From UHGV virus genome UHGV-0171999: a stretch of DNA of 64,000 nt; one strand, given 5' to 3'. A model generated the notes under the pieces. That model was not told where the DNA came from. It did not search any database and was given only the letters and a program-made list of their open reading frames with translations. Within the stretch, counting starts at the first letter, position 1. Each line of letters opens with the position of its first letter. Positions 4,671-49,322 of the stretch are shown piece by piece. The position numbers were made by a program, and so were the translations under genes. Source of the DNA: a virus.

Positions 4671-4964
4671 CTATTTAATGAATACTTTAGATGATGCCTG
4701 AGCCACAGTATCACCGCATGATATTGGATCAGCCATTTGAACAGCTTTCTTTCCAGTGACATATACCTTAGAAGTTCTAGGTTGTGTCACTCCGCCATGT
4801 GTTTCATATGGCTTTTTAATTTCTGTATGTTCTGTAATTGGATCACCTGCTACGAGAACAGCAATTCCTCCAGTGAATACTTTACTCTGTGTAGCATTCA
4901 CAACTGTTGGAGGCCATGCTTCATGGCCGGCAGTAACGCACTTATCATAACTTAATCCTGACAT
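4671..4964 (-). CDS. 5.4: baseplate spike tip PAAR-repeat protein gp5.4
   Basis: 97-aa ORF immediately downstream of gene 5 region; size and position as recalled for T4 gp5.4. Confidence 0.75.
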
Positions 4965-5522
4965 TTATGACCTCTCATACACGTAGCTTCTCAATTTATT
5001 AGCCCAACGACTCCAATTTCCAACTATAGTTTTTGTATAATTTTTAACAAGAGTTTTTCTTATTGGAGCTGGAGGATTCGTCGGTTCAGTAGTATCAGAA
5101 GATGACCTAGAATTACTGCCAGAACCTCCAGATTCACCTTGTTCTTGGTAGTCATATATTAATGTTACTTCGTAAGTGAATGTCTTCTGGAGGTTTTGAG
5201 GAGCTTTCCATAGATATAACTGAGTATTAGAATCAGTTGGAAGGTCTTCCCATGAAGCAGCAGTTTTAAATTCATTATCTAAACGATATTTCAACGCATC
5301 ATTTCCAAATCCAAATACAGATTCATACGTTCCATATAAACGATTTTCTTCTACTAAAACCCCAGGAGTTTCTTCGTAACTAGTTATATTTATAGATACT
5401 AACGTTTCACCTGTTTCTAATTGAGCGGTAAAGGTGACGTCGATAGAAGAACCTTCCATGGATTCTCCTAAATCAGCGCTCATTGGAAGTATATTAGCCA
5501 ATGTCAATCCTCGATCCATCAA
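4965..5522 (-). CDS. hypothetical protein (gp5.1 position); true start may be an internal Met because the ORF overlaps gene 5 by 29 nt
   Basis: 185-aa ORF between genes 5 and 5.4. Confidence 0.5.
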
Positions 5523-7221
5523 TTGTGTATTGACCAGATGAAATAGAACTCATAGATGCCATTTTTTCTGTCCAATCACCACCAACGTCCCAATCAACTG
5601 TCCCAGCAACTTTCCAAGAAAGATTTCCATTTACTGTATTAGTCTGATTTCCTTCAACTAAAGTGGTAGCATCTCCTTTAACTGTAATGTCAGCATTACC
5701 TTCAACTACAATAGTAACATTACCTTTAACTAGGATAGTTCCATTACCTTCAACTGTCTTAGTTTCATCGCCACGTACAAATATTGTATTACTTCCATCT
5801 ATCTGGTGAAGACGATTATCCATGTTGTAATAAATTTCTGAACCACCGACGTTAGTCTTTTTATCACCGGCTACCAAAAAATTACCATCAGCGTTGGTTA
5901 TATCATACAAATTATCAACAGTTTTTCTTGTTCTTCTTCCTGACGGTGATACTTCTTCATAAGTTCCAGTTGGATGAACTAATCTATATCGTTCTTGCCC
6001 AGGGGTATCATCAAATTCCTGAATATGACCACTTTCAGTTTCCATTGTGTGAACATACGGATATTCACCTTTATATGAAGAAACAGGTTCTTTGAATAAA
6101 ATTCTCGAATCATTCGGAATAGGAGGGTCAGCTGGATCAGAAGACTTCGCCACAGTAGCAGCCATTGCTGATAGAGACCTAGCTGGAGTTTTCACTTCAA
6201 TACCGTATGATTCCAAATTACCCGTAAGAATAATCATGGTAACACGGGATGCACGGCCTTTTGTTTGTTGATACCACAATGAATCACGACCAGCTTTATA
6301 TGCTTTTTCCCAATCTCCGGCTAACATAGCAGTTAACATTGTGTTAAATTTAGCTACACCGCCAACACCCATCTGAAATGCCATATTTTCTAATGCCATT
6401 TGACGAGAACGATTAACTGCTTGCCAAACTGGGCCAACTTTAGAATGTGATTTAATGTCACGTTGCATATCAGCCAAATCACGCTCAAATAAAGCTACCG
6501 CTTCTTCCATTGTAATAGAACCTGGATTTCCGGTAATTTCACGACCAACTTGTTTTGATAAAACTTTATTAATTTGGGTCATATCACGAACTGGCTGCTT
6601 CATGATAAGATGACCAATGCCAATTGTCGGATATCCTTCAGTATCCCAATAAACTTTTAGTCTTAATCCTTCATCACGGCGAAGCATTTCAGCCATTGAC
6701 ATATTTGGATTATCATCAGTTGGAATCTCTGATAACGGTCTATCATCGGGATTTATTGCAGTGTCTAGATTGCTATCTTGGATAATATTAGAAGACGAAT
6801 CATATCCTACTTCTCCGCCTTGGTTTAATACGTTAGTATCATTTCCTAGACGTCTAGGATACTGTCCAGTCGGGTCAGAAAATCCTTCAAGTCTATTAGG
6901 CTTTTCGCGAACTATTCCGCCATACGTGCCAAGGACAATTCCGTTAGTTTTCCATTTGTCTAAAAAATGACCATAAACTCTAGTTCCTTCTACCGGACCA
7001 GTAACGGAGCCTCCAATTCCAGACATTGCTGCAGAAGTTATAGGTTGAATAACTGACATCCATGGTAATTTATCAGTTGGAATACCCATTACGTCGCCTT
7101 GTGCTCTTTGAGGTGGATGCAGACCAACTACACGAACACGAACACGACCTAATTTTAATGGGTCCATTCTATCTTCAACAACACCAACAAACCAATTAAG
7201 GTTATTACTTATCATTTCCAT
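5494..7221 (-). CDS. 5: baseplate central hub and tail lysozyme gp5
   Basis: 575-aa ORF; internal lysozyme motif EMLRRDEGLRLKVYWDTEGYPTIGIGHL similar to gene e; C-terminal VxGxxxxx beta-helix repeats. Confidence 0.92.
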   Translation of the reverse strand: MEMISNNLNWFVGVVEDRMDPLKLGRVRVRVVGLHPPQRAQGDVMGIPTDKLPWMSVIQPITSAAMSGIGGSVTGPVEGTRVYGHFLDKWKTNGIVLGTYGGIVREKPNRLEGFSDPTGQYPRRLGNDTNVLNQGGEVGYDSSSNIIQDSNLDTAINPDDRPLSEIPTDDNPNMSMAEMLRRDEGLRLKVYWDTEGYPTIGIGHLIMKQPVRDMTQINKVLSKQVGREITGNPGSITMEEAVALFERDLADMQRDIKSHSKVGPVWQAVNRSRQMALENMAFQMGVGGVAKFNTMLTAMLAGDWEKAYKAGRDSLWYQQTKGRASRVTMIILTGNLESYGIEVKTPARSLSAMAATVAKSSDPADPPIPNDSRILFKEPVSSYKGEYPYVHTMETESGHIQEFDDTPGQERYRLVHPTGTYEEVSPSGRRTRKTVDNLYDITNADGNFLVAGDKKTNVGGSEIYYNMDNRLHQIDGSNTIFVRGDETKTVEGNGTILVKGNVTIVVEGNADITVKGDATTLVEGNQTNTVNGNLSWKVAGTVDWDVGGDWTEKMASMSSISSGQYTIDGSRIDIG

Positions 7222-24153: not shown

Positions 24154-24735
24154 ATGGCGAGTTTAATTTTTACTTATGCAGCAATGAATGCTGGAAAATC
24201 TGCTTCTCTTTTGACTGCCGCACATAATTATAAAGAACGTGGGATGAGTGTATTAGTTCTTAAGCCTGCTATTGATACTCGCGATTCTGTCTGTGAAGTC
24301 GTTTCTCGCATTGGAATTAAGCAGGAAGCGAATATTATTACGGATGATATGGATATTTTTGAGTTCTATAAATGGGCTGAAGCACAAAAAGATATTCATT
24401 GCGTATTTGTAGATGAAGCTCAATTTTTAAAAACTGAACAGGTGCATCAATTAAGCCGAATTGTTGATACATATAATGTTCCTGTTATGGCTTATGGTCT
24501 AAGGACTGATTTCGCTGGAAAATTATTTGAAGGTTCTAAAGAACTTTTGGCGATTGCAGATAAACTTATTGAACTGAAGGCAGTTTGTCATTGCGGCAAA
24601 AAAGCGATTATGACAGCTCGATTAATGGAAGATGGAACACCAGTTAAAGAAGGTAATCAAATCTGTATTGGTGATGAAATTTATGTTTCTTTGTGTAGAA
24701 AACATTGGAACGAATTAACTAAAAAGCTCGGTTAG
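24154..24735 (+). CDS. tk: thymidine kinase
   Basis: 193-aa ORF with P-loop AAMNAGKSASLL and C-terminal zinc motif; matches recalled T4 Tk. Confidence 0.9.
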   Translation: MASLIFTYAAMNAGKSASLLTAAHNYKERGMSVLVLKPAIDTRDSVCEVVSRIGIKQEANIITDDMDIFEFYKWAEAQKDIHCVFVDEAQFLKTEQVHQLSRIVDTYNVPVMAYGLRTDFAGKLFEGSKELLAIADKLIELKAVCHCGKKAIMTARLMEDGTPVKEGNQICIGDEIYVSLCRKHWNELTKKLG

Positions 24736-24744
24736 TGCAAAAGT

Positions 24745-24752
24745 TATAAATA
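24745..24752 (+). promoter_or_regulatory. late promoter TATAAATA
   Basis: TATAAATA about 26 nt upstream of ATG 24778. Confidence 0.45.
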
Positions 24753-24777
24753 GGTTTATCTAACTAAAGGGGTATAT

Positions 24778-24990
24778 ATGCTACAATTAACTGAAAAGCA
24801 ACTTCGCAATCTTACTGTTCTTCAATTAGATGAAATTCGTAGGGAAGTTGGAAATATCATTTCAGCTTTGCGTCGAGAAGTATCACTCAACCAATCTCCA
24901 GCAGACTATACTAGATTGCGAAATTTTGAAAAATACCTTGATAAAGTTAAGGCCGTGCACCGGCACAAAGTAAATACAGGACAAAAATGA
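24778..24990 (+). CDS. hypothetical protein (rI.1 position)
   Basis: 70-aa ORF. Confidence 0.45.
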
Positions 24991-25002
24991 TAGGAGGCCT
25001 TT

Positions 25003-25296
25003 ATGGCCTTAAAAGCAGCGGCACTATTCGCCATGCTAGGATTAGCGTTTGTTTTATCTCCACCGATTGAAGCGAACGTCGATCCTCATTTTGATAAATT
25101 TATGGAATCTGGTATTAGACATGTTTATATGCTTTTTGAAAATAAAAGCGTAGAATCATCTGAACAGTTCTATAGTTTTATGCGAACGACTTATAAAAAT
25201 GACCCGTGCTCTTCCGATTTTGAATGTATAGAGCGAGGCGCGGAGATGGCACAATCATACGCTAGAATTATGAACATTAAATTGGAGACTGAATGA
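25003..25296 (+). CDS. rI: lysis inhibition regulator rI
   Basis: 97-aa ORF MALKAAALFAMLGLAFVLSPPIEANVDPHFDKF...; matches recalled T4 RI. Confidence 0.8.
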   Translation: MALKAAALFAMLGLAFVLSPPIEANVDPHFDKFMESGIRHVYMLFENKSVESSEQFYSFMRTTYKNDPCSSDFECIERGAEMAQSYARIMNIKLETE

Positions 25297-25679
25297 AATT
25301 CAGCGACTTTTCACAAAGTGGAAAACCTTCAAAGGCAGATGAATACTTAGGTTTATTAATGGCTGCACAAGCTTATTTTCATTCTGCGCATTTTGAAACT
25401 AAAAGTTATGCTAGACACAAAGCATACGATTTTATTTTCTCTGAGTTGCCAGATTTGATTGATAAATTTGGTGAGCAATATTTGGGGTATTCTGGTAGAA
25501 AATACACACCTTCAATTCCAGATGCCAGTAAACTTCCTACCGACACAATTAAAATGATTGATCGTATACTAGACCAATCTAACAGCATTTATAAAGAAAT
25601 GCCTCCAGCCATTCAAAGCACGATAGATGATATTACTGGAATGTTTTACCAGAGTAAGTATCTTCTTTCCCTCGAATAA
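25293..25679 (+). CDS. hypothetical protein
   Basis: 128-aa ORF, ATGA-coupled to rI. Confidence 0.5.
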
Positions 25680-25684
25680 CATTA

Positions 25685-25706
25685 GTCTCCTTCGGGAGAC
25701 TTTTTT
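25685..25706 (+). terminator. intrinsic terminator (UUCG hairpin plus T-run)
   Basis: gtctcc-ttcg-ggagac followed by tttttt. Confidence 0.6.
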
Positions 25707-25716
25707 CATTTTACCG

Positions 25717-25746
25717 GTTTACTTTCCATTTGAGCTGTGATACTAT
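25717..25746 (+). promoter_or_regulatory. early promoter
   Basis: GTTTACT, 17 bp, TGaTACTAT. Confidence 0.55.
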
Positions 25747-25774
25747 ACAACCATCGGATAAAGAGGAGAACATC

Positions 25775-25963
25775 ATGAAAATTGAAGCACTTAATCAAGA
25801 AGGAAATATCTACGTCATCATTAATGGTGATTTTTTCGTCGACATGGATGAAGTTACTAGTGAAGAACTTGTAGAACTTCTTAAGAAACGTTATGATATG
25901 TGTGATGAAGCTGCAACTCACATGGCGTGTGCAATATTCTCTCTTTCATATGTGGTGGAATAA
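25775..25963 (+). CDS. hypothetical small acidic protein
   Basis: ORF 25730-25963 with start at Met 25775 after SD agaggag. Confidence 0.4.
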
Positions 25964-26166
25964 TGATTAGTATCGAACAAGCAGATAAAATTAAAGAATT
26001 GGTAGCTTTAATTCGCAAAGCAGATGAGGAACTTAGTGACTTTGCTTGGTTTTCGGCAGGCATTGCAAATAAAGGCGCTGAAGAACTTGAAGCTAAAGTT
26101 GATAATGCTGTAGAAGCTTTAGATATGTTTCTTGATGAAATTATCGATCATAATACGAGAGTTTAA
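25963..26166 (+). CDS. hypothetical small acidic protein
   Basis: ORF 25927-26166, start at Met 25963 (taATGa overlap). Confidence 0.4.
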   Translation: MISIEQADKIKELVALIRKADEELSDFAWFSAGIANKGAEELEAKVDNAVEALDMFLDEIIDHNTRV

Positions 26167-26168
26167 GT

Positions 26169-26516
26169 ATGCTGACACGCGAACAGTTTGAAAAAATCAT
26201 TAAATTAGTACGTGATGTTGAAATAGATTCATATCAATTAGCAGTTGAGCATTGTGAAGGATACTCATACGATGGTATAGAAGCAGCTAAAAAGGATTTG
26301 GATAAATCCAAAGCTAAGTTAGTTCAATATCTTGAAATGATTAGGTGGACTGAAAAGCAGATGTTTTTAATGAAGCTAATTGAAGAATATGCTAATGCAG
26401 TTTCTGACTATGAGTATTCTGCTCGAGAAAGAGGTACAGCTTTCGCAAAGGAAGAAATGAAAATCATGGTTGATGCTCACACAAAGCTTCAGAATTTTAT
26501 TGAAAACGTCATTTAA
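26169..26516 (+). CDS. hypothetical protein
   Basis: 115-aa ORF. Confidence 0.45.
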   Translation: MLTREQFEKIIKLVRDVEIDSYQLAVEHCEGYSYDGIEAAKKDLDKSKAKLVQYLEMIRWTEKQMFLMKLIEEYANAVSDYEYSARERGTAFAKEEMKIMVDAHTKLQNFIENVI

Positions 26517-26518
26517 TG

Positions 26519-26548
26519 GTTTACAAGTTGGCAAGGTTATGGTATAGT
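26519..26548 (+). promoter_or_regulatory. early promoter
   Basis: GTTTACA, 17 bp, TGgTATAGT. Confidence 0.5.
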
Positions 26549-26729
26549 AATCTTGTCAACTGCCAAGGAGAAGAGAATGAAAGTTTTGTTTGTTGTGTAT
26601 GTGATGATTCAATATTATCACCCGATGTTTACTTATAATCTGGTGAACAACATTATTGATATTATTCAAAGGAGTATGTAATGACAAATGAACAAGCTTT
26701 TAAGTTAAGAGAATTAATTGAAACTTTAA

Positions 26730-27008
26730 TTGGTGAATAATGTGAGCTTTCCGAAATTAGAAGTAGGTGATTTAGTCTTAACAAAATTGTGGAATGATAC
26801 TCAATCAGTAGAAATCTGCCAATATCGTGGAGCAACAGGTAATTTGATGTACACGATTTATAATCCAGAAATTTTGTTAGAGTGTCATTTGGAACGCTTT
26901 ATAAAAGATACTGATAGTATGCCTTATAGTGTATCGATTGTACGTAAATCTAATACGAAGGAATACTCTAAAATTTTAGAACAAATTCATGCCAATAAAA
27001 AGGATTAA
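26730..27008 (+). CDS. hypothetical protein (non-ATG start)
   Basis: 92-aa ORF from the track, apparently TTG-initiated. Confidence 0.35.
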   Translation: MVNNVSFPKLEVGDLVLTKLWNDTQSVEICQYRGATGNLMYTIYNPEILLECHLERFIKDTDSMPYSVSIVRKSNTKEYSKILEQIHANKKD

Positions 27009-27009
27009 T

Positions 27010-27540
27010 ATGAAACGATTAGTATTAGAAGTTAGTCCGCTTTTTGGTGAATTGGCTATAGAAAAAGTAAATAACATGTATCGTTTGACGCAAGAAGACG
27101 ATATGCTATATTTTACGCCTAGTGAAATCATTCATTTAACCCAAATTGAATATCCTTATACCGATAAAATAGTAAGCATTAATGATGAGCATAAAATTCA
27201 TTTTTATTCTTCATGTCCAGGATTTAATATTAAAAGTGAGTCGATGTGTTTATCAGTTATCCATTGGGATAGTTTTATAGATAAGATTAAATATTTTTAT
27301 TATTCTAATGAAAGAAAACATAATTTAAAATGGTTTAAAAATTGCAATGCTATTATTACTAACGCTTGTAATCAAAATTATGAAACTGTTTTAGATGTAT
27401 CAAAATGCTATGAAGAGGGAGATGTCATAACTATTCGTCAATCGGTAAATGATGTTAATGTTGTTGTATTAAACAAAGAAGAAGCTGTTTTATTAAAGAC
27501 TTATCTTGATTCTGTCATTCCAACTATGGTTTCAAAGTGA
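27010..27540 (+). CDS. hypothetical protein, paralog A
   Basis: ORF 26989-27540, start at Met 27010; C-terminus AVLLKTYLDSVIPTMVSK. Confidence 0.5.
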   Translation: MKRLVLEVSPLFGELAIEKVNNMYRLTQEDDMLYFTPSEIIHLTQIEYPYTDKIVSINDEHKIHFYSSCPGFNIKSESMCLSVIHWDSFIDKIKYFYYSNERKHNLKWFKNCNAIITNACNQNYETVLDVSKCYEEGDVITIRQSVNDVNVVVLNKEEAVLLKTYLDSVIPTMVSK

Positions 27541-27546
27541 GGAAAT

Positions 27547-28068
27547 ATGTTTATTTCAAGTGGAAGCGGTTTAATTCGTGTTGAATTTAAAAATGACATC
27601 TTCCTTATTCAAGGAGATGATATTATTAAAATGAGCTATGATGAAATCAAGAAAATTTGTCATGCTCTTGAAAGTCATGGAAAGGAAAATGCTACTATCG
27701 ATATAGGTGATTTATGGGTGACACTCTATGAAGTATCCGAAGGATTTAACATTGAAGATGAAAACAACATCTTAGCTATTGATAAAAGAAGCGATTTGTT
27801 TGACGTGTTAAAAGTTTATGAACAGTCAAACGATGGAAGAAAAGCTGCATTGATTTATCAAAAACCACATTCATGTGGAACTGCTTCAATCATTTCAGAT
27901 ATTGAAGATGAAACTGATACTTATATGTGTGTTTTAAAAGCTGGTGGTGACCGTCATCCGGATTTTATTTCTATTCGTCAAAACAATGGAGAAATTTCAT
28001 TATCAAAATCAGAAGCTGAAGCTATGATTAAGTATTTAACAACTGTTACACCTTCAATGAAAGGATAA
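27547..28068 (+). CDS. hypothetical protein, paralog B
   Basis: 173-aa ORF; C-terminus AEAMIKYLTTVTPSMKG similar to the upstream ORF. Confidence 0.5.
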   Translation: MFISSGSGLIRVEFKNDIFLIQGDDIIKMSYDEIKKICHALESHGKENATIDIGDLWVTLYEVSEGFNIEDENNILAIDKRSDLFDVLKVYEQSNDGRKAALIYQKPHSCGTASIISDIEDETDTYMCVLKAGGDRHPDFISIRQNNGEISLSKSEAEAMIKYLTTVTPSMKG

Positions 28069-28070
28069 TT

Positions 28071-28532
28071 ATGATTATTAATGAAAGCTCTTGGCACTAT
28101 AAATTATTCAAAATGTTTAACGACGAATGGAAACGACCTAAGACACTGTGCGCGTATTTTTGGTCTATTGTTATCCCTACATTTTTCGTTTCTTTTTTCG
28201 GATGTACTATACTCGCAGGTCTAACTATCATCTGTGCAGAAATCATGCAGAAATGGCTTATTTTTGGTAGTTTATGGACTCTTATTCCAGCAGCATTTAT
28301 ACTTGCCATTTTGCTTGTTTTACTTATTATTGGTTCATTTGTTATTCCTGCACAACTACATGAAAAATATAAAGATTATAAATGGAAAAAGGATTATGCT
28401 TTACATGTAGAAAATATTGATAGGGCGTATAAAGGTTTACCTCCTATTCAACCCAAGAAATCTATTATCATCGAATTTTTAAAAGCGTGTAAAGCTAAAG
28501 TATGTCCTGTTATTGAATATAAGGCTGAATAA
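28071..28532 (+). CDS. membrane protein
   Basis: 153-aa ORF with two or three hydrophobic helices. Confidence 0.5.
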   Translation: MIINESSWHYKLFKMFNDEWKRPKTLCAYFWSIVIPTFFVSFFGCTILAGLTIICAEIMQKWLIFGSLWTLIPAAFILAILLVLLIIGSFVIPAQLHEKYKDYKWKKDYALHVENIDRAYKGLPPIQPKKSIIIEFLKACKAKVCPVIEYKAE

Positions 28533-29542
28533 TGAAAACAGTAATGAAAAGTTATTTTGGTAGTCATCTTTATGGAACTTCTACCCCAGAATCTGATGTA
28601 GATTTTAAAGAAATTTTTGTTCCTCCTGCTCGTGATATTCTTATCGGAAATGTTAAAGAGCATATGAGTAAAAACACTAACAACACATCATCTAAAAACA
28701 CTAAAGATGATATTGACCATGAACTATATAGTCTTAAGTATTTCTTTAAATTAGCAGCAGATGGTGAAACTGTAGCATTAGATATGCTCCACACTCCACC
28801 TGCACTAGTGGTTAAATCTGATTTGCCTGATGTGTGGAAGTTTATTCAAGACAACCGTTCTCGTTTTTATACAACTAACATGAAATCCTATTTAGGATAT
28901 GTCCGTAAGCAAGCTTCTAAATATGGCGTTAAGGGTTCTCGTTTGGCTGCATTACGTGATGTATTGAAAGTAGTTAATCAAATCCCTGAGCAATGGGTTG
29001 ATTACCAAGAAGATGGTTCTATTAAACAGCGTCGCACTAAAGTTGAAGATATTAAGCATCGTCTTCCAGAGAACGAGTTCTGCGAATGGGTGTTCCATAA
29101 TCATGAGAAAACAGGTCCGCAAACGTTCTATACAGTGTTGGGTCGTAAATATCAGACAACGCTTTCTCTTATTGAGCTTAAGCAGTCACTGAACAAATTA
29201 GATGCTGAATACGGCGAACGTGCTCGTAAGGCCGAAGCTAATGAAGGTATTGACTGGAAAGCTCTGAGCCATGCTTGCCGTGGTGGACTCCAACTATTGG
29301 AAATTTACAAAACTGGTGACTTGGTTTATCCACTCCAAGATGCTCCATTTATTCTCGATGTGAAGTTGGGTAAACACCCATTTAAAACGGTCCAAGAGTT
29401 TTTGGAAGATGTGGTCGATCAAGTAGAAGCAGCATCTACTGAAGCTTCTAAGAACGGTATGCAGCAAAAAGTGGACATGGGTTTCTGGGATGACTTCCTT
29501 GAGAGGGTGTATCTCGAAAACCATCGAAGTTATTATAAATGA
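28532..29542 (+). CDS. putative nucleotidyltransferase (Pol-beta-like NTase fold)
   Basis: N-terminal motif GSHLYGTSTPESDVD (GS-x9-DxD). Confidence 0.5.
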   Translation: MKTVMKSYFGSHLYGTSTPESDVDFKEIFVPPARDILIGNVKEHMSKNTNNTSSKNTKDDIDHELYSLKYFFKLAADGETVALDMLHTPPALVVKSDLPDVWKFIQDNRSRFYTTNMKSYLGYVRKQASKYGVKGSRLAALRDVLKVVNQIPEQWVDYQEDGSIKQRRTKVEDIKHRLPENEFCEWVFHNHEKTGPQTFYTVLGRKYQTTLSLIELKQSLNKLDAEYGERARKAEANEGIDWKALSHACRGGLQLLEIYKTGDLVYPLQDAPFILDVKLGKHPFKTVQEFLEDVVDQVEAASTEASKNGMQQKVDMGFWDDFLERVYLENHRSYYK

Positions 29543-29544
29543 TA

Positions 29545-29568
29545 GGGAGCCTTCGGGCTCCCTTTTTT
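29545..29568 (+). terminator. intrinsic terminator (UUCG hairpin plus T-run)
   Basis: gggagcc-ttcg-ggctccc followed by tttttt. Confidence 0.65.
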
Positions 29569-29593
29569 ATTTCAAAATTTTTTTCACAAAACA

Positions 29594-29623
29594 GTTTACA
29601 AGCATAAAGCTTTATGGTACTAT
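29594..29623 (+). promoter_or_regulatory. early promoter
   Basis: GTTTACA, 17 bp, TGgTACTAT followed by acaactatcaact. Confidence 0.6.
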
Positions 29624-29657
29624 ACAACTATCAACTGATACGGATTTGGAGAATAAA

Positions 29658-30626
29658 ATGAAAACTGTAACTATCAATAAGGGTATCTACTTCGGTAAAG
29701 AAATCTCTGGAACTTTTGAGCTCTTAGGCGAATGGTTCCCAGATAATGCTCCGGTAGATGCACAAGGAGATGGTAAAGTTTTTGTTGAAATTGACGGTAA
29801 ACGTCGCGGTGTTTGGGTTTACAAATCAGATATTTCATATGATGGTGTAAAAGTTGAAGAAGTTAAAGAATCATATGAAGATATGAAAACCCGCATTAAT
29901 AAAAGATTTAATGTTATGGGAATGATGACGAATGGTATTATTAACGGAAACATTCGTTCATTAATTATCTCTGGCGCAGCAGGTATTGGTAAAACGTATT
30001 CTTTAGATAAAGCTTTAAATAAAGCAAATGATATTGGATACATTGAATATAAAAGCATTAATGGTAAAATCTCTGGTATTGGTCTTTATGAGCAGCTTTG
30101 GAATAATCGTGAAGAGAATTCTGTCCTTTTGATTGATGATGTGGATGTTTTTTCTGATATGGACATTCTTAATCTTCTAAAAGCCGCTCTGGACACCGGA
30201 GAGACCCGTAAAGTATGCTGGAGCACTGCATCTTCCTACTTAGAAGAAAAAGGTATTGACCGTGAGTTTGAATTTAAAGGAACGATTGTTTTTATCACAA
30301 ACGTTGACATTGACCGCGAATTAGACCGTGGTACTAAACTTGCTCCACACTTACAAGCATTAGTGTCCCGCTCAGTTTATTTGGATTTGGGTGTTCATAC
30401 TAATGAAGAAATTATGGTCAGGGTTGAAGATGTTATTCTTTCAACTGACATGATGCAAAAGCGCGGTCTTTCTGATGAAGAAACTTATAAAGCATTATCA
30501 TGGATGAAAGTTAATGTAAACCGTTTACGCAATGTTTCACTGCGTACTGCTCTTTATCTTGCTGACTTTATTATGACCGACAAAAACGGTTGGGAAGAAA
30601 TTGCTGAGGTTACTCTTCTGAAATAA
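29658..30626 (+). CDS. putative P-loop ATPase
   Basis: ORF 29490-30626 with start at Met 29658; Walker A GAAGIGKT, Walker B-like VLLIDDVD. Confidence 0.55.
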   Translation: MKTVTINKGIYFGKEISGTFELLGEWFPDNAPVDAQGDGKVFVEIDGKRRGVWVYKSDISYDGVKVEEVKESYEDMKTRINKRFNVMGMMTNGIINGNIRSLIISGAAGIGKTYSLDKALNKANDIGYIEYKSINGKISGIGLYEQLWNNREENSVLLIDDVDVFSDMDILNLLKAALDTGETRKVCWSTASSYLEEKGIDREFEFKGTIVFITNVDIDRELDRGTKLAPHLQALVSRSVYLDLGVHTNEEIMVRVEDVILSTDMMQKRGLSDEETYKALSWMKVNVNRLRNVSLRTALYLADFIMTDKNGWEEIAEVTLLK

Positions 30627-30727
30627 TTCATAAGAGGACTTCTATGACAAAAAGGCAGTTCAGAAATAGATTATATGGACTGCCATTAAAAAGATGACTA
30701 GAATTAAACTGGTGAATGGAGGTAGTG

Positions 30728-31030
30728 ATGTTATACTCAAAGGCTCGTGAAATTTACGAAACTAAAATTAAAGAAGCAGTATTTCAGTTCGCAACGACAA
30801 TGCGATGGACAAATGATTGGGAGTATTCAAAAAATCATAAGAAGCCCATGGTGACAAGAAAGGCTCATATGTTAGTGTTAATAGACCGTGAGCAGATTAA
30901 AGCCCGAGAAGCCCTCCAGAATCATAAAAAGGCTGCCTTTGAATGGTTTATGGACCACACTGCTCCTGAGACTAAGAAAGCAGTGAGCGCCTGGTTCAGT
31001 GGAAAAAATTGTGAAAGAAGTTTCTTTTAG
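30728..31030 (+). CDS. hypothetical protein
   Basis: ORF 30716-31030 with Met at 30728. Confidence 0.4.
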   Translation: MLYSKAREIYETKIKEAVFQFATTMRWTNDWEYSKNHKKPMVTRKAHMLVLIDREQIKAREALQNHKKAAFEWFMDHTAPETKKAVSAWFSGKNCERSFF

Positions 31031-31032
31031 TG

Positions 31033-31062
31033 GTTTACAAGACTGTTCCTCTGTGGTACTAT
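31033..31062 (+). promoter_or_regulatory. early promoter
   Basis: GTTTACA, 17 bp, TGgTACTAT followed by acaactatcaactac. Confidence 0.6.
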
Positions 31063-31090
31063 ACAACTATCAACTACGGAGGAACAGAAA

Positions 31091-31618
31091 ATGAACGCTA
31101 AAGATATTTTCAACTTGGTAAATTACAACGATGGTAAATTTAAATCTGAAGCACAAAGCAAGTTCTTTAATGACATCTCAATCGGAGGTGAAATCACTGT
31201 TGATGGAGGACAAATTTACAAATCACGTTGGAATTGGATCGTTATTATCGATGAGATTGGTATTGTAGAAATTTACAAGAATACGAATAAAAATCGTACA
31301 TTACACTGGTCTCGTGATACTAACGAACAGTATAAAAAGGATAAAGCATCTAAATTATCTCGTGTAACTCAAGAAGATATTGAGTTCATCAAGAAAGATA
31401 TTTTAATGTATGATAACTTAATTGCTGAAGAGCAAGCTGTTATTGATAAATTTGATGAGATTAAAGCTTCTCGTGAAATTCCTGATTTTATGAAAGAATC
31501 AGTAAATGAACGATACACTCTCATTTCAGAGCGTATTGAAACTTACAAAAAGCAAAGAGCTGAACGCCAAAATACTCTTCGGAAGTTTGAAGAACGGTTA
31601 AAGACGGTACTCGCATAA
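31091..31618 (+). CDS. hypothetical protein
   Basis: 175-aa ORF. Confidence 0.5.
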   Translation: MNAKDIFNLVNYNDGKFKSEAQSKFFNDISIGGEITVDGGQIYKSRWNWIVIIDEIGIVEIYKNTNKNRTLHWSRDTNEQYKKDKASKLSRVTQEDIEFIKKDILMYDNLIAEEQAVIDKFDEIKASREIPDFMKESVNERYTLISERIETYKKQRAERQNTLRKFEERLKTVLA

Positions 31619-31673
31619 CCGCTTTATACCAAGGATGGTATAATGGTTCTAAGCCCTTTTAATTGAGATTATT

Positions 31674-32081
31674 ATGAAACAGTTGATAATTAAAAGATTG
31701 AATTTATTGATATGTTGTTTATGTGTAGTAGTTGCATATGGTTATTACGCAATTAATGATTATATGCACTATAAAGATTATGATGTTACTGTAGTTAATA
31801 CTATTACAGGAACACAAGGAAAGGGGTCTAGTTTATCGTTTATTGCCGTATATGAACTTAAAGACGATTATAGATTTAGTGAATATATTTCCCCAGAGAT
31901 GTATTCTTCAATAGAAAAAGGTGATAATATTACTGTAAGTTTACGTCCTTTCGACGTAAAACAGACACTGTTTGATAATATTGTTTGGTTCTTTGGAATG
32001 GTATTAGTTCAATCCGTATGTGGCGCTTATGTAGTCTGTTCCATCTTGTTCTGTATATTTAGTAAAATTGAAATTGAGTGA
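31674..32081 (+). CDS. membrane protein
   Basis: 135-aa ORF with N- and C-terminal hydrophobic helices. Confidence 0.45.
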   Translation: MKQLIIKRLNLLICCLCVVVAYGYYAINDYMHYKDYDVTVVNTITGTQGKGSSLSFIAVYELKDDYRFSEYISPEMYSSIEKGDNITVSLRPFDVKQTLFDNIVWFFGMVLVQSVCGAYVVCSILFCIFSKIEIE

Positions 32082-32144
32082 GGAAAATATGTCAGTAGTA
32101 ATTAATAATGTCAATGCAGTAATTAAATCTTTAGTTAATAAAAA

Positions 32145-32978
32145 ATGATGAATGAATGGACTGTATTTCGTCGTGGAGAGCCAGATAAATTTTTTCATAG
32201 ATTTAACTCAACTTTGGATTTGAATGTTATCGACAGAGATGTTCATGCAGAAATTTTAGATAAGTTTAAAGTTGATATTGGATTTGGATTAGAAAAACAT
32301 TTGCAGCGAACAAATGGGTCTGGAATGAGTTTATCTAATCGCATTATGAAAGCCCTTAATAAAATTGGAGCGTTGTCTCGTATTAACGCGAGTGAAATCC
32401 TTCGTAATTATAATAAAGGATATGACCTTTATGGTCGACTAATGCCGAAGTTATCATTTGACCAAATGATTGCAGATTTGTGGGAAAATCAACGACGATT
32501 ATTAGCATTAGGTGCTCGATTAGCTAAAGGTCTAGATAAACAAATGATTTTTAAGACCAATAATACAGAAGACCTTAAATGCTTTAAATTTAGTATTCGT
32601 GGCGATGATTATTACATCAGAGCTCGCTCTACAGATTATGTTAATATGGGTCATCATCTCTGTTTAGCCTTTGAAGTTTTAAAAGAAGCTGGAACACTAG
32701 AATATTCATCTGGTGCAAAATGCCCTATTGGCTCAAGTTGTATTTTAATTTATCGCCCGAATGAATCCAGTTCAACTACATTGCCTACGAAACCTGTACC
32801 AGTTCGTAGTAACGAAAAACATTCTGAACAAATTGATTATTTTAATAAGCAAATTGAAGAGCTGAATATTTCTATTCAACAATATGATGATGAAATTTTC
32901 AGACTATCTGGACTGAGTAGTAAAGCTAAATCTGAGCGTGAAAAGTTAATTAAAATTGTTGATTTACTTAAATCTTAA
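32145..32978 (+). CDS. hypothetical protein
   Basis: 277-aa ORF; C-terminal coiled coil. Confidence 0.5.
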   Translation: MMNEWTVFRRGEPDKFFHRFNSTLDLNVIDRDVHAEILDKFKVDIGFGLEKHLQRTNGSGMSLSNRIMKALNKIGALSRINASEILRNYNKGYDLYGRLMPKLSFDQMIADLWENQRRLLALGARLAKGLDKQMIFKTNNTEDLKCFKFSIRGDDYYIRARSTDYVNMGHHLCLAFEVLKEAGTLEYSSGAKCPIGSSCILIYRPNESSSTTLPTKPVPVRSNEKHSEQIDYFNKQIEELNISIQQYDDEIFRLSGLSSKAKSEREKLIKIVDLLKS

Positions 32979-32986
32979 GGAACACC

Positions 32987-33334
32987 ATGAAAACTCGTTC
33001 TCAAATTGAAGATATGGTTCGTAATGCCAGCTATACTCGTGATGTTATGACATTTTTGTGTCAAAATAATTTAGACCCTGATAAAGTTAATCGTGATATT
33101 CACTTTAAATATATGAATAGCAGTGAATGGTTACGTCATTTTAGTAAAGCGGGGTATATTACACAAATGACTGCTCGTGAGCAGCTCACCGATTTCTGTA
33201 AAACTATTGATTATAAAAATCCTCTATTTGTTCAGGCGTTGGTCAGAGTAAGGTTGATTTATCATCTGGATTTTTTAATCCAAATCATTATCGTATTGAA
33301 TGGAGATTTATTGCTCTATTCCGTAAACAATTAA
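32987..33334 (+). CDS. hypothetical protein
   Basis: 115-aa ORF. Confidence 0.4.
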   Translation: MKTRSQIEDMVRNASYTRDVMTFLCQNNLDPDKVNRDIHFKYMNSSEWLRHFSKAGYITQMTAREQLTDFCKTIDYKNPLFVQALVRVRLIYHLDFLIQIIIVLNGDLLLYSVNN

Positions 33335-33417
33335 AGCAAATTTTATCAACTGCGAGTCGATTAAAAGGTTCTGATATTAACTTAAAGAACCTGAAATTTG
33401 ATGGTTATACTCTTCAG

Positions 33418-34317
33418 ATGGAAGTAAGACCATTAAAAGAAAATAATAGAACTGCACGAATTAGCTTTAAACCTAATACAAAAAATTCTCTTTCAATTTG
33501 CGAATGCCTTAAATCGCAGTTGACAGAAGCATTTAAGTATATGGATGTTGTTGCCGCTGTTCAGTCTAAGATTTTACCTCGTTTTGAGCGATTTAAATTA
33601 GACACAACAACATATGAACTTGATATGATCGTTTCATTTAAATACGATTTTTTGAGAAAGGATGAAGTCCCGCAAGAGAAAAAGCAGGAAGTGCAAGATA
33701 ACTTAAATTTAAATTTATCTAATTACTCATCAAACGATCCTAAATTTTGGATGTATAGTTCAGGTAATGAGGATGCATGGAAATTCAATAAAGTGAATAT
33801 GCTTTTTAAGCATGCTCGCAAATTATTTACCGCGGGTGATGACCGTACAAATACAGTTCATGTTAAGGACTGGGTTATTGCTGATGAAGTAACACATAAG
33901 CCAGGTGGTTCATCAGTGTTAATTAATATCCAGGTTCCTTATTATTACTCACGTAATCTCGGCACCATGAACTCTAGAGAAATTAATAAGCACAACAAAA
34001 CTATTCGTTCGTTGTCTTATAAACTCCGCATGATGTTAAAAATCATGGACGTAGTGGAAATGTATGACGAAACCGAAGATAATGGTTCAATGTTATACAG
34101 CTCACGCATTCTAATTAAACTGAAGAACCCTAATACATACAAGCCAGTTGTAAAAGAACCTAAAGTAGAAAAGGTTGATAACCTGAGCGAAGAACGCGAA
34201 TATCTTAATGCTCGCTTAATTGAAGTTGAAAAACAGATTGAAGAGCATACTAAAGTTCTTAAAGATTTAACTGCCAAAGCAAATGGTTTACGTAATGCTA
34301 TTGAGGTATTAAAATGA
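33418..34317 (+). CDS. hypothetical protein
   Basis: 299-aa ORF; C-terminal coiled coil. Confidence 0.5.
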   Translation: MEVRPLKENNRTARISFKPNTKNSLSICECLKSQLTEAFKYMDVVAAVQSKILPRFERFKLDTTTYELDMIVSFKYDFLRKDEVPQEKKQEVQDNLNLNLSNYSSNDPKFWMYSSGNEDAWKFNKVNMLFKHARKLFTAGDDRTNTVHVKDWVIADEVTHKPGGSSVLINIQVPYYYSRNLGTMNSREINKHNKTIRSLSYKLRMMLKIMDVVEMYDETEDNGSMLYSSRILIKLKNPNTYKPVVKEPKVEKVDNLSEEREYLNARLIEVEKQIEEHTKVLKDLTAKANGLRNAIEVLK

Positions 34318-34631
34318 AAAAGCGTCTATTAGAAGATATTGCAGCTTCAAGTAATTCCAGTCTAATTAAAATTATTATGGCTGGTGAAGAAGACGATCTA
34401 GAAATGCGTGGAAAGATTCATGGTTGTGACGATCTAGACTTTAAACCTCCTGCTTGGGATGCCATTATGGTTATGGTTGAACGCCGCGAAAGGGCTTCTA
34501 AGAATGTTCCAAACTGTCCAAAGTGTGGTACTGAACAGGTACAATTAGTTCATTGGCAGACTAGTAATCTTCGTTATAAATGTCGTTATTGCAAACACCG
34601 ATTTAACCGAGAAGAAAATGACCAAGCGTAA
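34314..34631 (+). CDS. zinc-ribbon protein
   Basis: CPKCG-x17-CRYCKH motif; ATGA overlap. Confidence 0.45.
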
Positions 34632-34869
34632 AGAATATATGAAGACTGCTGAAATGGCAGTCCGCGAATTAGCAATAGCTTATTATTATGAACATGGTAA
34701 ATTTCCTGATAGATACAGCGTGCTTAAATCTGCTTTAACTCGTTCATATAAAAATATGCTATCAGAAGTAAGTGATATTATATACAAACATAAAGAACAA
34801 ACGGGCCAAAGTCTTGATTATGACGAGACTTTTAAACAAGTACTAGGAATTAAGGAATATTATGTTTAA
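34618..34869 (+). CDS. hypothetical protein
   Basis: 83-aa ORF. Confidence 0.45.
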
Positions 34870-35125
34870 GGTATATGGTTATGATAGCAGCATCCATAAA
34901 TGTGTGTATTGCGATAATGCAAAACGTCTTTTGACTGTAAAGAAACAGCCGTTTGAATTTATCAACATTATGCCGGAAAAAGGTGTTTTTGATGATGAGA
35001 AAATCGCTGAGCTTCTGACGAAACTAGGTCGTGATACTCAAATTGGTTTGACGATGCCACAAGTATTTGCTCCTGATGGAAGTCATATTGGTGGATTTGA
35101 CCAATTGCGGGAATACTTTAAATGA
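34862..35125 (+). CDS. nrdC: glutaredoxin (thioredoxin) NrdC
   Basis: [24 protein letters not shown]...; CxxC motif; matches recalled T4 NrdC, 87 aa. Confidence 0.9.
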
Positions 35126-35337
35126 TGCTCGAAGGAACTGATTATATCCATGACTACCGCGGAAGCGCGGTATATGTAGGTGATGAGGTTGCAGTTTATT
35201 ATGGATATGGAACTTTGATGACAGCAAAGGTTATTCAAATTAAAAATAATCGTGCTAAACTCGAAGTTTATTATTCTAACGGTGAAAAGTCTATTTCTAA
35301 ATGGAAATATGGCGATTGCATGGTCAAACTGGGGTAA
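35122..35337 (+). CDS. hypothetical protein
   Basis: 71-aa ORF. Confidence 0.45.
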   Translation: MMLEGTDYIHDYRGSAVYVGDEVAVYYGYGTLMTAKVIQIKNNRAKLEVYYSNGEKSISKWKYGDCMVKLG

Positions 35338-35339
35338 AT

Positions 35340-35510
35340 ATGATTTACGATATTAGTGCATCAAGAACTCCGTCAATGGTTACTATTCCTGCTGAAGAAT
35401 TAGATCGTCTTCAGAAAATTGAAGAACTTCTTTGGGAAATTGAATCTGATTTGCCATCAGGATTAGAATCCTGGATTGATTATGAAGAACTTAATAAATT
35501 GCGAAATTAA
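35340..35510 (+). CDS. hypothetical small protein
   Basis: ORF 35301-35510 with Met at 35340. Confidence 0.4.
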   Translation: MIYDISASRTPSMVTIPAEELDRLQKIEELLWEIESDLPSGLESWIDYEELNKLRN

Positions 35511-35520
35511 TTGGTGAAAA

Positions 35521-35841
35521 ATGAATATTGAAAATAAATTAGATATTGATGCAGTTCTGAGTGAAATCATCGAAGACCATGATGCATTTTCAGAAAATTA
35601 TGATTTCGATTTTTCGGATTATCTTAAACCTATCGAAATAGAAGACTGGGTACAAGATGGCAAATGCCAATATCGCCAGTGTGTTTATTTTAGTCCAAAA
35701 CACAATGTACATGTTTCCGTAAATGAATGCCGTTCAGGTTCTTACCATTCTGACTGGTATTATGCAGTTCCGACTGTTGAACTAGTCGAGCCCCGTGAAC
35801 GTGTAGTAACTCAGACAGTACGAGAATGGATTACGCTATAA
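35521..35841 (+). CDS. hypothetical protein
   Basis: 106-aa acidic ORF. Confidence 0.45.
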   Translation: MNIENKLDIDAVLSEIIEDHDAFSENYDFDFSDYLKPIEIEDWVQDGKCQYRQCVYFSPKHNVHVSVNECRSGSYHSDWYYAVPTVELVEPRERVVTQTVREWITL

Positions 35842-48613: not shown

Positions 48614-49322
48614 GTTTATATTTACAATTATCATTATGCCATCTTGATAAATTTCCGAAAGTGGTAACTTTACCACAATGGACGCAAGTACCAGTCTTTT
48701 CAGTTTTCTTGCGTCCATTTGGATTTTTCTTGCAGAAATTTCTATGCGCTGCGATAACGCATTTCTTGCCTATCATTCCGCAGAATTCGCAGGATGTTTC
48801 TTCAAGAACGATTGCTTTAAGCCCGTTTGAGATATTATTTCTGTGTTCTTTAGACATTGGCGGTCTAACTTTAGGATTGGGGTGATTTGGGCAGTTATCA
48901 AAATGCCATCGATTCATATTCCCGCTTAATCCAGACTTACCGCAATGTGGACAAGTTAGTCTTGCTTTATTAGCTACTGCATCGGACATTTTCTTTCGTG
49001 TCTCTTGGGAGAACTCTTTATTCTTTTCTATTTCCCAGAGTTTACGACGAATCCAGCCGAAAGTTTTATTGTTGCGTTTAGCGTATTTCGTAGAAACTGT
49101 CATCATGTTAGCAGCATAGACTAATTTTGGTTCAGAAGGATAAATTTTTACTAAAAGTTGATGAGCTACATAGTGCTCTTCTGGTGTTAAATCTACTAAG
49201 TTTGAAGCATCATCGCTACCATTTAAACAGCGTGGTATAATGTGATGAGATTCAGTATAGCAATCAAGTTTTCGAGATTTAGCATTAGAGATTAACTTTT
49301 CGTAAATTAGTTTATAATTCAT
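48606..49322 (-). CDS. HNH homing endonuclease (Mob-like), antisense to neighbouring genes
   Basis: HNH motif ESHHIIPRCLNGSDDASNLVDLTPEEHYVAH; three C-terminal CxxCG...RWHxDNC zinc-finger-like repeats; overlaps gene 46 stop by 8 nt. Confidence 0.8.
   Translation of the reverse strand: MNYKLIYEKLISNAKSRKLDCYTESHHIIPRCLNGSDDASNLVDLTPEEHYVAHQLLVKIYPSEPKLVYAANMMTVSTKYAKRNNKTFGWIRRKLWEIEKNKEFSQETRKKMSDAVANKARLTCPHCGKSGLSGNMNRWHFDNCPNHPNPKVRPPMSKEHRNNISNGLKAIVLEETSCEFCGMIGKKCVIAAHRNFCKKNPNGRKKTEKTGTCVHCGKVTTFGNLSRWHNDNCKYKPN

Follow-up and report, generated by a model that had tools for sequence, protein, structure and literature searches.

The virus genome UHGV-0171999 was analysed as one stretch of 64,000 nt (the window). 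We describe here a block of 9,577 bp (25293–34869) that lies between the genes rI (25003–25296) and nrdC (34862–35125) and extends from the start of rI.-1 (25293) to the end of nrdC.1 (34869), as an earlier note on this DNA had placed it. A tblastn search with 25 proteins of phage T4 found their genes in the T4 order and on a single strand, namely tk, rI.1, rI, rI.-1, mobD.5, mobD.4, mobD.3, mobD.2a, mobD.2, mobD.1, nrdC.11 down to nrdC.1 and nrdC, with rI at 25003 and nrdC at 34862; the minus strand of T4 corresponds to the + strand of the window. There is little doubt that this is the mobD.x/nrdC.x early accessory gene block of a T4-like phage (Tequatrovirus), inherited with minor changes. 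The region is already known: it is a textbook accessory region of T4, present nearly unchanged in hundreds of sequenced phages, and the T4 fragments nrdC.1-6 and nrdC.11-mobD.3 have been found to be removable (PMC9825161).

Every gene of the block is on the + strand, the coding density is 93%, and the G+C content is 33.9% versus 35.0% in the window. After over-long calls were trimmed, the content comes to 18 genes in 19 open reading frames (ORFs) of 34–336 amino acids (aa), fewer than the approximately 25 ORFs counted in the earlier note. The 378-aa ORF at 29490 is an over-extended longest-ORF call for nrdC.10, whose true start is at 29658, and the 40-aa ORF at 26516 is likewise an artefact of longest-ORF calling. 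The tight, overlap-coupled packing that the note had described is borne out, as 12 of the 21 junctions from rI.1 up to the ORF that follows nrdC overlap or leave no more than 8 nt between genes; the regulatory signals sit in the longer spacers of 55–115 nt. The ratio of nonsynonymous to synonymous polymorphism (pN/pS), computed against five relatives, is 0.10–0.16 for the whole block, which indicates that the small ORFs are genuine genes under purifying selection; it does not exceed 0.05 in rI.-1, nrdC.11, nrdC.10 and nrdC, or 0.06 in nrdC.8. Each ORF falls in an existing Pfam or PHROG phage family and 11 of the 19 have a Pfam match above the cut-off, mostly to DUFs. With these matches and with T4 phenotypes for three of the genes, the statement that almost none of them has a recognisable function is out of date. 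Ten block proteins had zero matches in NCBIfam, and an Rfam search of 24700–35400 at permissive thresholds returned just two matches far under their gathering scores (an L20 leader, 27.7 vs 58.7 bits, and snR40), which we took as chance.

A megablast comparison of the block with 50,697 phage records gave 840 matching records, 451 of which match ≥80% of the query at a single location. Nearly all of them are Tequatrovirus, and the hosts of the matching phages are Escherichia, Shigella, Yersinia and Salmonella. T4 itself (AF158101 / NC_000866, 48393–59205) has the same flanks, strand, gene order and layout of promoters and terminators; the positional match to its nrdC.x region, noted earlier, holds for the sequence as well. 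Of the 9,577 bp, 8,182 (85%) align collinearly with T4 at approximately 94% identity, and 14 window genes have 78–100% aa identity to their T4 counterparts, while mobD.3/2a and nrdC.5 are orthologous but have been reshaped by lesions. The earlier note had named collinear near-identity with T4 as the finding that would speak against its view of the block as strain-specific. That describes most of the block, but a total of approximately 1.4 kb has no match in T4 DNA (26685–27011, about 327 bp; 27566–28527; 33878–33983). In gene content, T4 has mobD where the window has a y05I paralogue and a membrane protein gene, and the window has an extra Tudor-domain ORF; in addition, the window lacks nrdC.4, its nrdC.5 is frameshifted and fused to nrdC.3, its mobD.3 and mobD.2a are fused, and its nrdC.6 is short by 19 codons.

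The closest sequenced relatives for this block, Escherichia phage KIT06 (OQ349392) and Shigella phage pSs-1 (NC_025829), cover 100% of it at approximately 96% identity. Both share the Tudor ORF, the y05I paralogue and the membrane protein with the window, and they differ from it only by insertions: intact nrdC.5, nrdC.4 and nrdC.3, which amount to about 1.7 kb of extra DNA, and, in KIT06, a further 460 bp between nrdC.11 and nrdC.10. Escherichia phage EC121 also lacks nrdC.4 and has nrdC.5 directly before an nrdC.3 allele with 92% nucleotide identity to that of the window; in EC121 both genes are intact, whereas the window has a further 645-bp in-frame deletion. Synteny is kept even in SP18 (Gaprivervirus), which is without nrdC.10 and nrdC.7. 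T6 has a 720-bp ORF in the spacer between nrdC.10 and nrdC.9, and T4 is the sole carrier of mobD among the phages compared. Thus, the region does vary by insertion and loss among T2, T4, T6, KIT06, EC121 and SP18, as had been claimed. Allele identities also differ from gene to gene (mobD.4 is 100% identical to KIT06 vs 78% to T4, and nrdC.2 is 98% identical to KIT06 vs 64% to T6), which points to recombinational mosaicism. Variation of this kind would arise through insertion of homing endonucleases, insertions into terminator/promoter spacers, recombination between alleles, and the acquisition or loss of members of small paralogue families, namely DUF7438 (three copies), y05I (two copies) and NrdC.3/4/5.

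Such variability, together with the 1.4 kb that has no T4 match, could be taken to mean that the block is a strain-specific hot spot harbouring genes and functions that other T4-type phages are not known to have, and ORFs unique to this phage had indeed been expected here. We regard this as scarcely tenable. KIT06 and pSs-1 account for every base at the identity given above, and the ORFs that T4 lacks (Tudor, y05I and membrane) are 94–98% identical to genes of these two phages and 88–96% identical to those of T6. The layout without mobD is that of the majority, with 360 records covering 26400–28600 as opposed to only 47, mostly T4 itself, that contain MobD at ≥95% identity, and all ORFs belong to existing PHROG families. 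The missing mobD, the extra Tudor ORF and the missing nrdC.4 are common polymorphisms, and the hot-spot proposal is largely refuted. In the T2 record (AP018813), mobD.1, nrdC.4, nrdC.6 and nrdC.7 appear fragmented, with mobD.1 matching in three frames, and product names of T2 and T6 such as 'tail sheath protein' and 'integrase' are plainly wrong for block genes.

Cassettes of a terminator followed by an early promoter, which the earlier note had reported, were confirmed at two places. One intrinsic terminator is located 3' of rI.-1 (25684–25701, + strand; 7-bp stem with 4 GC pairs, then TTTTTCATTT) and the other 3' of nrdC.11 (29544–29563, + strand; 8-bp stem with 6 GC pairs, then TTTTTATTTC); each of these strong + strand terminators has a T4 early-promoter motif 16–31 nt downstream. 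Four such motifs, all on the + strand and all beginning with GTTTAC-N15, are found in the block: 5' of mobD.5 (25717–25746, ending in TGATACTAT), 5' of mobD.2 (26519–26548, TGGTATAGT), 5' of nrdC.10 (29594–29623, TGGTACTAT) and 5' of nrdC.8 (31033–31062, again TGGTACTAT). The pattern GTTTAC-N15-TGRTAYWRT, derived from these four, occurs at 15 sites in the window (11229 to 62403), every one of them on the + strand, where chance would give 0.14; the other 11 sites provide independent support, and the 15 together suggest that a large part of the window is transcribed early and in a single direction. A scan for a generic sigma-70 consensus showed no enrichment (53 sites vs 49 in shuffles), and only the T4-specific motif is informative for promoters here. 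A candidate MotA-type middle promoter (31621–31644, + strand; GCTTTA, 12 nt, TATAAT) is predicted in the intergenic spacer 5' of nrdC.7, and we take it to resemble the T4 MotA-box consensus.

With this layout, the host sigma-70 RNA polymerase would transcribe the block from left to right within the first minutes after infection, starting at four strong early promoters of the T4 type, with a possible contribution of the MotA-type middle promoter. The two terminators would split the block into about five transcription units, and the small genes within a unit may be coupled in translation by stop and start codons that overlap or abut. Their products are expected to be dispensable in the laboratory and to act as accessory, host-range and counter-defence factors. 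The Shine-Dalgarno sequence of nrdC.8, GGAG, is a moderate RegB target, as expected for an early gene (PMC1702504). Two of the longer spacers, 29543–29657 and 30627–30727, are insertion hot spots in relatives; the second holds a GGCAGT...ACTGCC hairpin and a 17-codon mini-ORF.

Two proteins of the block are a nucleotidyltransferase and an ATPase, as the earlier note had recognised. NrdC.11 (28532–29542, + strand; 336 aa, 98.5% aa identity to T4, pN/pS 0.02–0.04) is a Pol-beta-type nucleotidyltransferase of the RlaP family, with a match to Pfam RlaP (PF10127) of 44.3 bits (cut-off 23) over residues 6–134 and a catalytic motif GS...DVD, FGSHLYGTSTPESDVDF, that fits the Pol-beta GS...DxD. The T4 protein has been put in the RlaP family and listed as being of unknown function, and RlaP enzymes of Pseudomonas add one or two nucleotides (nucleoside monophosphates) to damaged RNA 3'-OH ends (bioRxiv 10.64898/2025.12.29.696909). 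By extension from these bacterial enzymes, NrdC.11 may add nucleotides to RNA 3' ends. NrdC.10 (29658–30626, + strand; 322 aa, 99% aa identity to T4) combines an N-terminal beta-rich domain with an AAA+ ATPase domain that contains a Walker A motif GAAGIGKT and a Walker B motif LLIDDVD; G106, K112, T113, D160 and D161 are invariant or nearly so across 38 homologues. Every Pfam match of NrdC.10 is under its cut-off, and a sequence search of the PDB gave zero matches for NrdC.10 and NrdC.11. The AlphaFold2 model of NrdC.10 (mean predicted local distance difference test, pLDDT, of 89) has 169 PDB matches at E ≤0.001, all of them AAA+ proteins. The top Foldseek matches are spread over ORC/Cdc6, NSF/Sec18, RFC, Hda, RuvB and sigma-54 activators, at template modelling (TM) scores of no more than 0.45. 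Judged from the motifs and the model, NrdC.10 belongs to the AAA+ ATPases, and it is conserved across Straboviridae at 55–79% identity, including phages of Acinetobacter, Aeromonas and Vibrio.

We considered a conserved or obligatory nucleotidyltransferase-ATPase module and rejected it; of the pair proposed earlier, the two assignments stand and the two-gene module does not. A terminator and a promoter separate nrdC.11 from nrdC.10, and the spacer between them has received insertions in T2 (570 bp) and KIT06, where the inserted DNA carries two small ORFs. In Shigella phage SP18, nrdC.11 is present without nrdC.10, and no RlaP gene was found within 4 kb of the NrdC.10 homologue of Aeromonas phage 31 or of the one on a 179-kb ENA contig. 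In Acinetobacter phage Acj9, nrdC.10 and an RlaP gene are adjacent.

Four lesions, at approximately 26348, 32139 and 33234 and at a junction at 33774–33804, are private to assemblies of this phage. The first, recognised by alignment with T4, KIT06 and pSs-1, is a 10-bp deletion of AATAATGAAA that takes out the mobD.3 stop and the mobD.2a start and so creates an in-frame mobD.3::mobD.2a fusion (26169–26516, + strand; 115 aa) with two DUF7438 repeats and 64% aa identity to T4. The exact fusion protein occurs in only 3 contigs, from ENA and Logan assemblies. The second consists of one A fewer in an A run than in T4, KIT06, EC121 and pSs-1 and shows as a frame change in tblastn. It has cost nrdC.6 (32145–32978, + strand; 277 aa) its first 19 codons (32089–32145), and the match to phrog_2257 accordingly begins at profile position 20; nrdC.6 can restart at 32145.

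The remaining two lesions fall within an nrdC.5/nrdC.3 hybrid (32987–34317, + strand), which was delineated from tblastn frames, alignment and the junction sequence and is probably a pseudogene. A 1-bp deletion at about 33234 shifts the nrdC.5 frame after codon 82, and the hybrid is left as two ORFs, 32987–33334 (115 aa) and 33418–34317 (299 aa). At the junction, NrdC.5 residue 272 is joined in frame to NrdC.3 residue ~134 (the NrdC.3 part spans ~134–308), at a short imperfect repeat, AATTCAATA..AAGTGAAT. The deletion amounts to 645 bp relative to the EC121 type and to about 1.7 kb relative to pSs-1, and nrdC.4 is absent from the window. DUF7235 matches the two ORF pieces at E 1e-25 (profile positions 1–80) and E 1e-38 (124–246) out of 307; an uninterrupted NrdC.5 ORF of ~340 aa spanning the profile is not present, positions 247–307 being replaced by NrdC.3 sequence. 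The 299-aa ORF matches both PHROG 2351 (NrdC.5) and PHROG 1435 (NrdC.3/4), and its nrdC.3-derived part has 59% aa identity to T4. It starts at an internal ATG (33418) without a Shine-Dalgarno sequence, and both it and the 115-aa N-terminal fragment form singleton clusters among approximately 15 billion proteins, as opposed to a full-length NrdC.5 in 531 phage records. The junction in one piece has no match in the phage collection, IMG/VR or JGI metagenomes. Because of the frameshift, the fusion, the singleton products and the internal start codon without a Shine-Dalgarno sequence, we read nrdC.5 as probably a pseudogene in this phage.

Could the private lesions be artefacts of sequencing or of mixed-population assembly, with the genes of the real phage intact? 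Matches to exact proteins trace the window to a 167,058-bp metagenome scaffold (ENA ERZ28629209, PASO19-1; SAMN09781698), one of the lesions is within a run of seven A residues, and none was found in the phage, IMG/VR and JGI collections. However, the ENA scaffold and a Logan contig (SRR7658682), produced by different pipelines, are identical to the window over 31918–35817, which includes both 1-bp deletions and the junction. Moreover, the nrdC.5 frameshift is located in an AA dinucleotide and not in a long homopolymer, the junction keeps the frame and coincides with a short stretch of similar sequence, as expected of a genuine deletion, and SP18 carries a naturally split nrdC.5-like gene. We therefore consider an artefact unlikely. 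The SP18 gene (4956–5860 of its sequence), divided into ORFs of 170 and 125 aa, is a second natural case of nrdC.5 decay and indicates that such decay recurs in nature.

At the other extreme, the NrdC.5-NrdC.3 chimera and the fused two-repeat DUF7438 protein might be functional new variants produced by an arms race, in which case the chimera could be a retargeted inhibitor of a defence system. The junction is in frame, the 299-aa ORF retains the C-terminal coiled coil of NrdC.3, the 10-bp deletion joins the two DUF7438 repeats exactly in frame, and the N-terminal part of nrdC.5 has the highest pN/pS of the block (0.23–0.69). We nonetheless find this very improbable. The frameshift cuts the first 82 codons off from the rest, the downstream ORF lacks a Shine-Dalgarno sequence at its first start codon, and both hybrid products are singletons. 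The chimera is also approximately 140 residues out of register with the homology between NrdC.3/4 and NrdC.5, and as a result part of the fold would be duplicated and the C-terminal 68 residues of NrdC.5 would be lost; a deletion that inactivates the gene explains this better than a clean exchange of domains. For the same reason we rejected in-register unequal crossing-over as the origin of the fusion: NrdC.5 residue 272 meets NrdC.3 residue ~134, and the DNA shared there is only a short imperfect patch.

The register could be assigned from profile comparisons within the family. NrdC.3 and NrdC.4 align with each other at an hhalign probability of 90.5%, and their merged profile aligns in register with NrdC.5 (probability 80%, E 1.3e-5). 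By this comparison, the three genes appear to be distantly related tandem paralogues with a common C-terminal coiled coil. The NrdC.3-derived ORF of the hybrid has a precomputed match to Pfam PF26897 (Phage_T4_Y04OP), Y04O and Y04P being, as we take it, the UniProt names of NrdC.3 and NrdC.4. A C-terminal coiled coil of approximately 45 residues is common to NrdC.3, NrdC.4, NrdC.5 and NrdC.6. NrdC.6 was considered as a further paralogue but is not supported as one by hhalign (probability <1%); it shares only this coiled-coil architecture.

The expectation that anti-defence genes accumulate in this region proved correct for T4. There, nrdC.5 counteracts the sirtuin defence DSR1 (Dsr1) and allows cells that carry it to be infected again (PMC9391042), and nrdC.1 has been reported as an inhibitor of Septu (bioRxiv 10.1101/2025.11.20.689424). 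The window encodes a full-length orthologue of the Septu inhibitor (nrdC.1, 34618–34869, + strand; 83 aa, with 96% aa identity over all 80 residues of T4 NrdC.1). From the probable loss of nrdC.5, the phage is predicted to be DSR1-sensitive. As putative distant paralogues of nrdC.5, nrdC.3 and nrdC.4 are plausible candidates for genes that inhibit further defence systems. That a T4-like phage in the wild lacks nrdC.4 and has a probably inactivated nrdC.5 is consistent with counter-defence genes being expendable and disappearing where the corresponding defence is not encountered. The block resembles the 'anti-TA island' dmd-tifA-adfA of T4 (PMC9391042), which is likewise a run of small, early, dispensable genes, several of which neutralise host defences. 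In contrast to that island, the known inhibitors in the block act on unrelated systems and are interspersed with the strongly conserved nrdC.10, nrdC.11 and nrdC.8 (pN/pS ≤0.05), which look more like housekeeping accessories.

We put at about even the chance that one or more conserved genes of the block have an undescribed host-takeover or counter-defence activity and that, at the same time, nrdC.3, nrdC.4 and nrdC.5 form a tandem family of defence inhibitors that is gained, lost and recombined in the wild. Candidates for such an activity could be nrdC.6, nrdC.8, nrdC.9, the y05I pair, the Tudor ORF, the DUF7438 trio, and NrdC.11 with or without NrdC.10. One activity of this kind could be the host-mRNA destabilisation that has been mapped to tk-nrdC.2 in T4: the 11.3-kb delta-tk2 deletion (tk to nrdC.2) abolishes it, and the responsible gene was unidentified as of a 2010 review (PMC3014915). 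The equivalent interval in the window is 24154–34631, in which the RlaP-type NrdC.11 is a candidate gene.

Several considerations weigh against this picture of an early-transcribed accessory and counter-defence block. The function is unknown for 13 of the 18 genes, which leaves counter-defence shown for only two, in T4 only, and the loss of anti-DSR1 activity in this phage is a prediction. Sequencing errors or minority variants in the metagenome assembly could account for the 1-bp lesions. The putative RlaP assignment of NrdC.11 draws on its N-terminal 130 residues, and no RNA ligase gene (RtcB or 5'-phosphate ligase) was found in or beside the block; presumably, the RNA ligases of T4 are encoded elsewhere in the genome. 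The timing of expression and the use of the promoters are transferred by analogy from T4. Any undescribed function of the kind considered above would belong to T4-like phages generally and not to the window, whose specific content is only the probable loss of the anti-DSR1 gene and three other small lesions. The discovery value is therefore small, with modest worth as natural-history data.

The block opens with rI.-1 (25293–25679, + strand; 128 aa), which is 100% identical to its T4 counterpart at the aa level, matches Pfam DUF5856 (E 5e-33) and has a start that overlaps the rI stop (ATGA). In T4 genetics, rI.-1 contributes to the regulation of lysis inhibition (PMC2962797). It is followed by mobD.5 (25775–25963, + strand; 62 aa, 97% aa identity to T4; phrog_3024, function unknown) and mobD.4 (25963–26166, + strand; 67 aa), a DUF7438 protein with the 78% (T4) and 100% (KIT06) aa identity already cited and, with mobD.3 and mobD.2a, one of three paralogues. 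Beyond the mobD.3::mobD.2a fusion are mobD.2 (26577–26681, + strand; 34 aa, 85% aa identity to T4; phrog_3515) and an ORF for a phage Tudor domain (26742–27008, + strand; 88 aa; Pfam Phage_tudor PF24144, E 1.6e-40). The latter is absent from T4 and T2 and present in T6, KIT06 and pSs-1, and its GTG start is identical to the one used in the annotation of pSs-1.

Two y05I-like genes follow, each with the Pfam domains T4_y05I_N and T4_y05I_C: mobD.1 (26989–27540, + strand; 183 aa, 81% aa identity to T4) and a paralogue (27547–28068, + strand; 173 aa) with 23% identity to mobD.1 (E 5e-8). The paralogue has no match in T4 and is 94–97% identical to the proteins of T6, KIT06 and pSs-1. Next to it is a gene for a 153-aa membrane protein (28071–28532, + strand; phrog_944 'membrane protein') with approximately three hydrophobic segments in the hydropathy profile, whose cluster at 90% identity has 543 members. 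The paralogue and the membrane protein gene together occupy the place of mobD in T4, a free-standing HNH endonuclease gene inserted between nrdC.11 and mobD.1 (PMC2988022). No MobD match was found in the block, and thus no HNH endonuclease of this type between mobD.1 and nrdC.11. The sole MobD match in the window (49113–49322, - strand; 53% aa identity to the first 75 residues of T4 MobD) probably represents all or part of a further free-standing homing endonuclease.

On the other side of nrdC.10, NrdC.9 (30728–31030, + strand; 100 aa, 98% aa identity to T4) matches Pfam DUF7203, and a GGAGG Shine-Dalgarno sequence precedes its ATG at 30728. NrdC.8 (31091–31618, + strand; 175 aa, 99% aa identity to T4) belongs to phrog_2274 and has a pN/pS of 0–0.06. 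NrdC.7 (31674–32081, + strand; 135 aa; aa identity 89% to T4 and 99% to KIT06) has two hydrophobic segments; it and the 153-aa ORF are membrane proteins, in line with the membrane proteins that had been noted here. The AF158101 sequence of T4 has a lesion of its own in nrdC.6, a private 1-bp deletion near the 3' end relative to the window (32864–32866), KIT06, EC121 and pSs-1. Because of this deletion, the annotated 275-aa NrdC.6 of T4 is without the C-terminal coiled coil, which is kept in versions of 295–296 aa, including a 296-aa one from strain T4T. The zinc-ribbon protein mentioned earlier is NrdC.2 (34314–34631, + strand; 105 aa), in which four cysteines (CPKC...CRYC) form the ribbon motif; it has only weak zinc-ribbon matches in Pfam, and its aa identity is 87% to T4, 98% to KIT06 and 64% to T6.

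Past nrdC, the interval 35122–35510, between nrdC and 49.2, contains two small ORFs of 71 aa (precomputed Pfam match to DUF7205) and 69 aa. In T4 this place is occupied by gene 49.3, and T4 DNA fails to align with the window over 35127–35513. The next gene (35521–35841) encodes a homologue of T4 gp49.2 with 96% aa identity. In T6, gp49.2 inhibits the OLD defence (PMC13096335), and the presence of this homologue indicates that the counter-defence neighbourhood extends beyond nrdC.

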